NCBI RefSeq assembly: GCF_044647545.1
Contig: NZ_CP172818.1
From: Escherichia coli
Lineage (GTDB): Bacteria; Pseudomonadota; Gammaproteobacteria; Enterobacterales; Enterobacteriaceae
Length of the DNA stretch: 64,000 bases
Strand: one strand, 5' to 3'
Below, piece after piece: positions 1 through 3,000 of the stretch (positions are counted from its first letter, which is position 1; every line of letters begins with the position of its first letter). The position numbers were made by a program.

Positions 1-3000
1 GTCGTCATGGAACGCCGGCAGACAGTGCAGGAACTTCACGTTCGGGTTGTCGGTCAGCGCCATCATCTGCGCGTTCACCTGATACCCGCGCAGCAGCGCA
101 ATCCGCTCTGCCCACTTCTCTTTGGCCTCGCCCATCGACACCCACACGTCGGTATAGATAAAGTCCGCGCCCTTAACGCCTGCCGCCACGTCTTCCGTCA
201 GAGTAATTTTCCCGCCGTGCTTCTCCGCCAGCGCGCTGCACTCCGCCACCAGGCTCTCTTCCGGCCAGCAGGCTTTCGGGGCCAACAGGCGCAGATCCAG
301 CCCGGTCAGCGCCGCCGCTTCCAGCATCGAGTTGCCCATGTTGTTGCGCGCATCGCCCGCGTAGACCAGCGTCATCTCGTTAAACGCCTTGCCCGGCAGG
401 TGCTCCTGCATGGTCATCAGGTCCGCCAGCAGCTGGGTCGGGTGGAACTCGTTGGTCAGCCCGTTCCACACCGGCACGCCCGCATACTGCGCCAGCGTTT
501 CGACCACTTCCTGGCCGTGACCGCGATACTGAATGCCGTCATACATCCGCCCGAGAACCCGCGCGGTGTCCTTAATTGACTCTTTATGCCCAATCTGGCT
601 GCCGCTCGGCCCTAAATAGGTAACGCGCGCGCCCTGGTCAAATGCGGCAACTTCGAAAGAGCAACGGGTACGAGTCGAGTCTTTTTCGAAGATGAGCGCG
701 ATGTTTTTACCGGTAAGCTTCTGTACTTCCTTGCCATTTTTTTTATCGGCTTTGAGCTGTGCGGCAAGGGTCAGCAGAGAAGTGAACTGTGCAGGGGTAA
801 AGTCGAGCAGTTTCAGAAAGTGTTTTTTGTATAAATCGGACATTTTATCCTCGCATGGCGAACGCCACTTATTGAATTAAAATTCACTTTATATGTGTAA
901 TTATTCATTTGCAACCCCATTTCACAATTCTTTCTTACAAAGGTGGAGGCAAACCCGTCCGTGTGTGAAAATAATCGTATCTGCCTCCGATTCTCTGCAG
1001 AAGCAGAAAGACATTGGATCGAATTCTACAACCAGGTCGAGTCAGAAATGAGAATGATTGGCCTTCTTTATGATTTTAAGGATTATGCTTCTAAAATGGC
1101 GGAGAACATGGCGAGGCTTGCTGCCTTACTTCATTACTTCAGCGGTGATGGAGGCGATATATCTGTTACCGGGTAATGACTCCAACTTACTGATAGTGTT
1201 TTATGTTCAGATAATGCCCGATGACTTTGTCATGCAGCTCCACCGATTTTGAGAACGACAGTGACTTCCGTCCCGGCCTTGCCAGATGTTGCCTCAGATT
1301 CAGGTTATGCCGCTCAATTCGCTGCGTATATCGCTTGCTGATTACGTGCAGCTTTCCCTTCAGGCGGGATTCATACAGCGGCCAGCCGTCCGTCATCCAT
1401 ACCACGACCTCAAAGGCCGATAGCAGGCTTAGAAGACGCTCCAGCGTGGCCATTGTGCGTTCACCGAAAACGTGCGCAACGACCGTCCTCCGGAGCCTGT
1501 CATACGCGTAAAACAGCCAGCGCTGGCGCGATTTAGCCCCGACGTATCCCCACTGTTCGTCCATTTCCGCGCAGACGATGACGTCACTGCCCGGCTGTAT
1601 GCGCGAGGTTACCGACTGCGGCCTGAGTTTTTTAAATGGCGGAAAATCGTGTTGAGGCCAACGCCCATAATGCGGGCGGTTGCCCGGCATCCGACGCCAT
1701 TCATGGCCATATCAATGATTTTCTGGTGCGTACCGGGTTGAGAAGCGGTGTAAGTGAACTGCAGTTGCCATGTTTTACGGCAGTGAGAGCAGAGATAGCG
1801 CTGATGTCCGGCGGTGCTTTTACCGTTACGCACCACCCCGTCAGTAGCTGAACAGGAGGGACAGCTGATGGAAATAGAAGCCACTGGAGCACCTCAAAAG
1901 CACCGTCATACACTAAATCAGTAAGTTGGAAGCATCACCGAATTTTCAGCCCGGATGTTTCACGTACCTATGTCGAATATCTGGCCGATAAGGTTGCGGA
2001 TCGAGAAGAGGATGCAGAGGAATATCTGGAAGCAATCATGGAGGCTCGTGTTACCGTTGCTGGCATGGGGCTGGTGATGGAGGTGCAGGATTACTTCGAT
2101 GGCGAGGCCGATAGACTGGCGAAGGCGTGGCTGGCCGAGTACACACCGCAAATCAAGTCGTTGAAAGATGAGCGTAAAGAGGCCTATCGTCAAATCGTCG
2201 AAATGAGTACCGAACCGCAGGATGTGGATCTGGTCAGGCCGGCGAACAAGTTTGAAATGACCAGGGTGCGTGAAGGTGAAAAGGAAGCTGACCTTCCAGT
2301 CTGGAAACACCATTTGTTGTGTGACGAAAGCGGGAACTATCCGGCTCTGTTGAACCATTGGGAAACCAAGGTTTTTGAGATCGAAACCAAACGTGAAGGA
2401 TTTGCTTTCTGGTATCGTAATCCACAGTACACAGGGCAGTCGTCACTGGGAATCGCTTATGTTGAAGCTGAACAGTACAAGATTGTTCGTCCCGATTTCC
2501 TGTTCTTTGCCGAACAGGATGGCAAAATGGTTGTGGACCTGGTAGATCCACATAGCCTACATCTGGCTGATGCTTTGCCCAAACTGGAAGGACTTGCGCT
2601 ATATGCCGAACATCATTCTGATGCTTACAGGCGAATCGAATCTGTCGCCGAAGTAAAGGGTAAATTACGAGTGTTAGATTTGAAACGGCAGGATGTGCAG
2701 GATGCTGTTGCTACCGCTGAAAATGCAGAAACGTTATTTAGTAGCGGACTTGCTGATGACTATCAGTAATCTATAGAAAATTGCGTAACGAAACTGCATT
2801 TTAGTAATTTTTTGAAACAATACAAATAAGGCCTTCTCACTGAGAAGGCCATTACCGACTTACAGTTCGATTTGGCTACAGCCGAAGTTACGGTCTCCTT
2901 CACCAAACACTTTGCTTTCAACTTTGGTCAGGTAGTCCAGTCGGGTTAACAGCGCCTGGTAGTTCTGCTGGAAGTCAGTACTATTGGTGTCTAGCACATA

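Follow-up and report, generated by a model that had tools for sequence, protein, structure and literature searches.

An IS1 element without a target duplication between two gene remnants in the CP4-6 region of Escherichia coli, and its probable origin by IS1-anchored deletion and IS1-IS1 recombination

The Locus and Its Relation to K-12

The window, a stretch of 64,000 nucleotides from E. coli contig NZ_CP172818.1 (assembly GCF_044647545.1), opens within argF, encoding ornithine carbamoyltransferase, and carries an IS1 element between two truncated reading frames. Over positions 1-13379 it matches E. coli K-12 base for base outside the IS1, which holds all 30 of the substitutions. This block holds argF, ykgS, IS1, yagJ, the genes from yagK to intF of the cryptic prophage CP4-6, the yagP remnant, and paoABCD. 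Past 13380 the window is collinear with K-12 and diverged by 1.5-5%, and of 350 differences from K-12 counted over 11 genes, 278 are at the third position of a codon. This divergence and the third-position bias point to a source that is a natural strain, distinct from K-12 but sharing the block; an artificially mutated sequence was ruled out by the same count of codon positions. The features at the left end of the window are as follows.

1-843, minus strand: argF, 5′ 843 nt; the gene runs on past the window start
813-908: argL leader (annotated by RefSeq), within the argF upstream area
844-965, minus strand: argF upstream control region, placed by K-12 annotation, a promoter scan, and alignment to the argI-rraB intergenic region
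927-900, minus strand: promoter-like site from the promoter scan, in the argF control region
943-1176, plus strand: ORF of the initial annotation, 77 codons, in the yfjI′ frame, terminating at a TAA in IS1
966-1171, plus strand: yfjI′ (K-12 pseudogene ykgS), a 206-bp internal piece of a DUF3987/YfjI-family gene with both termini absent
1172-1939, minus strand: IS1, 768 bp, K-12 "IS1C"
1187-1690, minus strand: insB frame, 167 aa, open, overlapping insA
1609-1884, minus strand: insA, 91 aa, open frame
1940-2769, plus strand: yagJ (ATG at 2038), the 3′-terminal 830 bp (codons 582-857) of a ResIII/DEAD-box helicase gene
2860-3486, minus strand: yagK (inovirus Gp2 family), native convergent neighbor of the helicase gene

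In K-12, IS1C lies between ykgS and yagJ, and its partner IS1B, of the same sequence, lies in afuB (PMC12428005). The window IS1 is the K-12 IS1C locus. The two agree in their junctions, in the flanking DNA over 1-13379, in orientation, in length, and in the remnants on either side, whereas the element itself differs at 30 of 768 positions, corresponding to one amino acid in InsA and eight in InsB. The feature is ordinary and already documented; the additions made here are a strain-by-strain account of the junction states and, from sequence alignment, the assignment of yagJ to residues 582-857 of a helicase.

The IS1 Element and Its Junctions

The initial annotation described a full 768-bp IS1 with intact inverted repeats. 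This was confirmed at 1172-1939, where the terminal repeats (1172-1194 and 1917-1939, 23 nt each) are complementary at 20 of 23 positions. The right repeat has a private substitution at window position 1930, reading GGTGATGCTtCC in place of GGTGATGCTgCC, and "intact" for these repeats means full-length, not canonical. Length and termini are those of the IS1 family (~768 bp, with ~23-bp imperfect repeats GGTAATGA... and GGTGATGC...). The coding organization is also that of the family, with insA, an overlapping insB frame, and an A6C -1 frameshift site, which appears as GTTTTTT on the plus strand at 1627-1633 (TTTAAAAAAC is the complement of 1627-1636). The 9-bp (occasionally 8-14 bp) target duplication that accompanies primary insertion in this family was not found. 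Length, repeats, and coding organization identify the element as IS1, the target duplication being the sole family feature that it lacks; this absence indicates that the junctions are secondary, not that the element is something other than IS1.

In the window, the left flank of IS1 ends ...atatctgttaccg and the right flank begins gaattttcagcc.... The adjoining 9-mers, ctgttaccg (1163-1171) and gaattttca (1940-1948), are identical at 3 of 9 bases. A search for direct repeats of 7-14 bp, allowing up to two mismatches and letting the IS1 boundaries move by ±2 bp, found none in any register, and the longest string common to the two 30-bp flanks is 4 nt. The initial report of differing 9-bp flanks is therefore upheld in every register. 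Its description of the reading frames was also accurate: it had the upstream ORF closed by a TAA from the IS1 end, and the yagJ frame open back across the other end. The upstream frame is open from 901 and stops at TAA 1174-1176, which is nt 3-5 of IS1, and the yagJ frame is open from 1852 to 2769, starting 88 nt within IS1.

Unlike flanks could also be false ones, produced by an assembly or chimera artifact in which an IS1 repeat was collapsed or misjoined. Misassembly often involves IS copies, and the allele of the window IS1 was not found elsewhere (see the last section). However, both IS1 junctions are unchanged base for base in 291 complete and independently sequenced E. coli genomes, RefSeq annotates the locus in the same way, and it has been described in the literature (PMC12428005), which makes an artifact scarcely credible.

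Origin of the Flanking Sequences

To the left of IS1, window 966-1171 is identical at 205 of 206 positions (99.5%) to nt 897-1102 of the 1410-nt K-12 CP4-57 gene yfjI. At the protein level, the left ORF covers roughly aa 300-367 of the 469 in a YfjI-type DUF3987 protein, and the flank matches positions 273-340 of 364 in Pfam DUF3987 (E = 1.2e-18). RefSeq labels ykgS a pseudogene, "incomplete; missing N-terminus and C-terminus." To the right, the comparison is with AH02, which has an intact helicase gene of 2574 bp; window 1940-2769 matches its final 830 bp with 99.5% nucleotide identity, and the extended YagJ frame aligns at 99% with residues 582-857 of the encoded protein, which has 857 aa. 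The domains of the AH02 helicase, ResIII (aa 3-185) and Helicase_C (aa 366-408), both lie in the part absent from the window, leaving the remnant without either Pfam motor domain. No domain in the YagJ segment reached significance in Pfam, NCBIfam, or PADLOC scans. YagJ is not similar to the C-terminal end of YfjK/AbpB, the CP4-57 helicase, and the PDB contains no sequence relative of the intact AH02 helicase.

The two flanks differ in how they relate to the surrounding prophage. In AH02, the gene order is integrase, HTH regulator, YfjI-family gene, yagK, and convergent helicase; the helicase-yagK arrangement is that of the window, and homology extends to window 3752. This order indicates that yagJ and yagK stand in their native arrangement, the helicase gene being merely truncated by IS1. 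In contrast, the yfjI′ piece is only ~70% identical to AH02 yfjI, and the sole match between the window yagK region and CP4-57 yfjJ is 64 bp at 77%, so that by these comparisons yfjI′ is foreign to the yagJ/yagK module. The disparity between the latter match (yagK/yfjJ, 64 bp, 77%) and that of yfjI′ (99.5%) also ruled out an IS1-mediated inversion in a CP4-57-like module as a candidate explanation of the locus.

The initial annotation had allowed that the two ORFs might be remnants of different genes or of one disrupted gene. Alignment to full-length homologues, which it had proposed as the way to decide, placed the left ORF at about aa 300-367 of the 469-aa YfjI-type protein and YagJ at aa 582-857 of the 857-aa helicase. 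The first alternative stands and the second falls, as the helicase gene and the YfjI-family gene are both intact and separate in AH02. The source genes of the two flanks are likewise separate and intact in AH02 and K-12, and the flanks are not contiguous in intact homologues, corresponding to yfjI nt 897-1102 on the left and helicase nt 1745-2574 on the right. A simple insertion of IS1 into one gene, with the ORFs as its N- and C-terminal parts and the duplication since erased by point mutations, would fit the fact that the ORFs are in the same phase and that the length of IS1 is a multiple of 3, such that its precise removal fuses the frames. However, such a fusion arises by chance one time in three, the flanks match different intact genes (yfjI and the AH02 helicase, each at 99.5%), and their terminal bases agree at just 3 of 9. 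Intact yfjI continues after ctgttaccg with cagtaaaagc, not gaattttca, and strains with a common left flank differ in the right flank. A single disrupted gene is thus extremely improbable. Both flanking ORFs are predicted to be non-functional remnants. For annotation, this means that YagJ, an intact CDS in RefSeq, and the ykgS ORF would be better described as dead helicase and yfjI-type remnants, respectively.

Junction States in Other Strains

In K-12, IS1B and IS1C are directly repeated and lie 10,703 bp apart. The segment that they enclose, within CP4-6, carries IS30′, yagB, yagA, yagEFGH, xynR, argF, and yfjI′. The window argF is identical base for base to K-12 argF, and its GC content is 58.7% vs. 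49.6% for the whole window. The K-12 flanks, with junctions here written as slashes, are atttggccc/IS1/gagaacaca ... ctgttaccg/IS1/gaattttca. Comparing the 9-mers of the two partner copies had been suggested as a further check, and when carried out on K-12, with the four flanks paired in every combination, it gave no match.

Junctions were counted over 5426 complete E. coli genomes. The whole K-12-type structure was present in 291 of these, mostly laboratory K-12 derivatives, the afuB′/IS1 junction in 458, and a junction of IS1 with nt 1318 of the helicase gene in 59. A count of 352 for the K-12-type right junction was left unused, as it is inflated by pieces joined across a 427-bp gap in the nt 1318 strains. 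The arrangements that differ from K-12 are as follows.

E. coli C: afuB′/IS1/IS30′ ... argF-yfjI′(ctgttaccg)/IS1/gtcaatacc, with the right junction at helicase nt 1318
504239 and S1-NGR-02-A (human isolates): two-IS1 structure with left junction ctgttaccg/IS1; the right IS1 abuts an MBOAT gene
0H23, MS15047, and 027_SK3: single IS1, afuB′(atttggccc)/IS1/gtcaatacc-helicase, with the argF segment absent

The right junction of E. coli C lies 427 bp upstream of that of K-12 and the window (nt 1745) in the same helicase gene, and in 504239 and S1-NGR-02-A the remainder of CP4-6 and the neighboring chromosome are absent. At least three right-junction states therefore stand behind one ctgttaccg/IS1 junction. 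Deletions that start from an IS end characteristically leave this pattern of one fixed junction, here the left, and one variable junction. A second kind of variation concerns the argF segment. E. coli C has both IS1 copies, and its outer flanks are equal to those of the single-IS1 strains; between these shared flanks, the argF segment and one IS1 behave as a unit, found together in E. coli C and missing together from the single-IS1 strains. A reciprocal junction, comprising IS1, ctgttaccg, and the 3′ part of yfjI, was sought in the 5426 complete E. coli genomes, which returned only spurious partial matches.

How the Arrangement May Have Arisen

Taken together, deletions anchored at IS1, combined with IS1-IS1 recombination of the argF segment, most probably account for an IS1 without a target duplication, and we put the probability of this reading at roughly 0.88. 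The window IS1 would be the argF-proximal member of a directly repeated IS1 pair around a foreign 10.7-kb segment in CP4-6. Its left junction would be the inner end of the argF segment, within a CP4-57-type yfjI fragment, and its right junction the place where a deletion extending from the IS1 end stopped, having removed the first 1744 nt of the CP4-6-native helicase gene, including the 427 bp that E. coli C and the single-IS1 strains retain. The element would lack a 9-bp duplication because neither of its current junctions dates from the first IS1 insertion. The initial annotation read the locus as rearranged through an IS and not as the product of one simple insertion, a view that agrees with the origin of the flanks in different genes and with the variable right junction. 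Its specific suggestion of recombination between two IS1 copies proved half sufficient: it is in keeping with the presence and absence of the argF segment, whereas the right junction requires a further deletion of 427 bp from the IS1 end, relative to E. coli C.

Intramolecular transposition of IS1 yields the classical "adjacent deletion," and classical IS1-promoted deletions of the gal region were reportedly described by Reif and Saedler in 1975. The deletions at the present locus were presumably made by IS1, judging from where the junctions fall. They could have arisen through intramolecular transposition or through a local hop of IS1 followed by homologous recombination between the direct copies. 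Both routes give identical sequence products and are compatible with the junctions, and dependence on the transposase is putative. As for the 427-bp difference, K-12 may derive from a state like that of E. coli C, although two separate deletions starting from a longer ancestral form could also have produced it. Homologous recombination between IS1 copies probably accounts for the gain or loss of the argF segment, and it could have run in either direction: the single-IS1 form may be the ancestor, into which the segment integrated by way of IS1 homology, or a descendant from which the segment was deleted.

Events of both kinds have been followed in the laboratory. In one study, 73.5% of IS-mediated deletions joined a pre-existing IS copy and a new copy nearby (Lee et al., 2016; PMC5009759). 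A deletion of ~11.5 kb between IS1B and IS1C appeared repeatedly there, in 12 mutation-accumulation lines of MG1655; it accounts for 14 of that study's 98 IS-mediated deletions and has become fixed in NCM3722 (PMC5009759). The present series resembles these deletions, and IS1 adjacent deletions in general, in that the IS is intact, one junction is fixed, the target duplication is lacking, and the end-points vary (here helicase nt 1318, helicase nt 1745, and the MBOAT gene). It differs in being reconstructed from natural strains rather than observed in real time. The ~11.5-kb deletion involves the same IS1 pair and the same unit, the 10,703-bp segment and one 768-bp IS1 amounting to 11,471 bp, and the natural single-IS1 strains show the outer flank expected on the afuB side. 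However, they carry the helicase nt 1318 junction rather than nt 1745 of K-12, which relates them to the form seen in E. coli C and not to K-12.

Another possibility is that an IS1-argF segment-IS1 composite, similar to Tn9, moved into CP4-6 as a unit and lost its target duplication through IS1-adjacent deletions. That IS1 brackets the K-12 argF segment has been recognized since the early 1980s, and York and Stodolsky (in 1981) and Hu and Deonier (also in 1981) are said to have proposed that it was acquired by transposition. Two identical direct copies of IS1 around a GC-rich foreign segment are what such a composite would provide, and two direct copies around cargo DNA, as in Tn9-type composites, were found in K-12, E. 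coli C, and 504239. The outer ends are difficult to reconcile with this proposal. Unlike Tn9-type composites, the argF unit has no outer 9-bp duplication in K-12 (atttggccc vs. gaattttca) or E. coli C (atttggccc vs. gtcaatacc), and its outer flanks are truncated pieces of the unrelated genes afuB and helicase, implying that the target was already a rearranged junction. The 59 genomes with IS1/helicase nt 1318 and the 458 with afuB′/IS1 fit a resident IS1 at least equally well. We consider transposition of a composite unlikely, and retain IS1-anchored deletion with IS1-IS1 recombination as the preferred reading.

On that reading, the locus could serve as a natural-strain textbook case of IS1 reshaping a cryptic prophage through nested end-anchored deletions, while also illustrating gain and loss of an IS1-bracketed argF segment and homogenization of IS sequences. 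It implies no new type of element or mechanism and has little import past annotation.

Divergence of the IS1 Allele

The 30 substitutions of the window IS1 relative to K-12 IS1B/C, at 768 positions compared, introduce no stops and leave both ORFs intact. They are patchy, falling in IS1 nt 65-118, in nt 217-317, and at scattered sites, and about 11 are private to the window among seven IS1 copies compared. The best match to the allele is 97.8% identical among ~74,600 IS1 places in the 5426 complete E. coli genomes, and the best plasmid match is 97.7%. The 45-nt right end of the window IS1 has no exact match in the GTDB representative genomes.

A junction made by rearrangement cannot be rebuilt by a fresh insertion, which argues that this IS1 was overwritten in place. 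Concerted evolution among IS copies is a known phenomenon, and gene conversion from other IS1 copies is the likely cause of the 30 differences. With some reservation, we lean toward the more specific view that an IS1 at a fixed junction may have been overwritten patchwise by conversion from other IS1 types. If this is true, "frozen" junctions could record the rates and tract lengths of gene conversion between IS copies. Patches of 11 substitutions, different in each case, are also seen in IS1 copies at matching junctions in two of the strains described above: 0H23 carries one at nt 65-160, and 504239 carries one at nt 465-522 that is common to both of its copies.

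Variation among IS1 copies at the same junctions

The IS1 element at window 1172-1939, the counterpart of IS1C in K-12, differs by 30 substitutions from K-12 IS1B/C in sequence comparison, within a surrounding 13.4-kb block that is otherwise identical. Among approximately 74,600 places carrying IS1 in E. coli, the best match to this allele was no higher than 97.8%. The copies compared with it were those at comparison loci L001 (14473-15240) and L004 (3806-4573), together with the two copies of strain 504239 (L010, 1301-2068 and 12772-13539). IS1 copies occupying the same junctions in other strains vary in distinct patches, at nt 65-160 in 0H23 and at nt 465-522 in 504239, where both copies are affected. 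These sequence patterns suggest in-place gene conversion of IS1.

Where the right IS1 of 504239 meets an MBOAT gene, its terminus is ...gcatcaTc (L010 13537-13539) rather than ...gcatcacc, so that IS1 nt 767 is substituted. This copy may have a damaged terminal repeat, or its junction may be slightly offset.

Gene remnants flanking IS1

To the right of IS1, RefSeq annotates yagJ (window 2038-2769) as an intact CDS for a 243-aa “protein YagJ.” Its start is in fact an internal Met that falls in the C-terminal 32% of a helicase of 857 aa. Both Pfam motor domains are absent, and the annotation should carry a pseudogene-remnant flag. The convergent genes yagJ and yagK are separated by a 9-bp GC-rich hairpin (GGCCTTCTC...GAGAAGGCC, window 2830-2850). 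It is called as terminator-like for the minus strand and may be a shared bidirectional terminator kept from the intact helicase-yagK arrangement.

On the other side, the argF upstream region meets yfjI′, an internal fragment of a DUF3987/YfjI-family gene, within a patch of approximately 19 bp (window 966-984, tgaaaataatcgtatctgc) that is similar both to yfjI and to the paralogous argI-rraB intergenic region. The only mismatch of this patch to yfjI is a T at 978, the same base as in the argI-side sequence. Judged from the sequence, this dual resemblance, along with the shared T, hints at microhomology-mediated recombination at the junction.

IS-associated rearrangements in other strains

The junction of truncated afuB with IS1 also occurs on plasmid pCFSAN061762 (NZ_CP042902.1, 88081-106160), where an IS1-bounded segment holds IS5, mmuP, mmuM, fbpC, and afuB′ with the afuB′-IS1 junction. 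This neighboring segment of CP4-6, a cryptic prophage, was apparently mobilized onto the plasmid by an IS1 pair. E. coli C and 027_SK3 have gone through extra IS-associated rearrangements of this region: unlike K-12, both have mmuP beside mhpT, and the helicase remnant of E. coli C is cut again after 337 bp by an IS3 and has a type I restriction gene after it.

Divergence from K-12 elsewhere in the window

The pattern of identity to K-12 along the window is a recombination mosaic. Identity falls sharply from 100% to approximately 97% at 13380, in the paoA-yagU interval, and is back at 100% in prpR (58523-60109). Alignments of fdrA and yahJ to K-12 contain 8 and 7 gap positions, respectively, so both genes may be frameshifted in the window. 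The stretch at 25777-28239 (approximately 2.46 kb) has no alignment to K-12, which at the matching point carries a 1.25-kb IS3, absent from the window, between truncated eaeH and ykgA. An eaeH-like ORF of 359 aa is found at window 24897-25976, followed by approximately 2 kb devoid of long ORFs.
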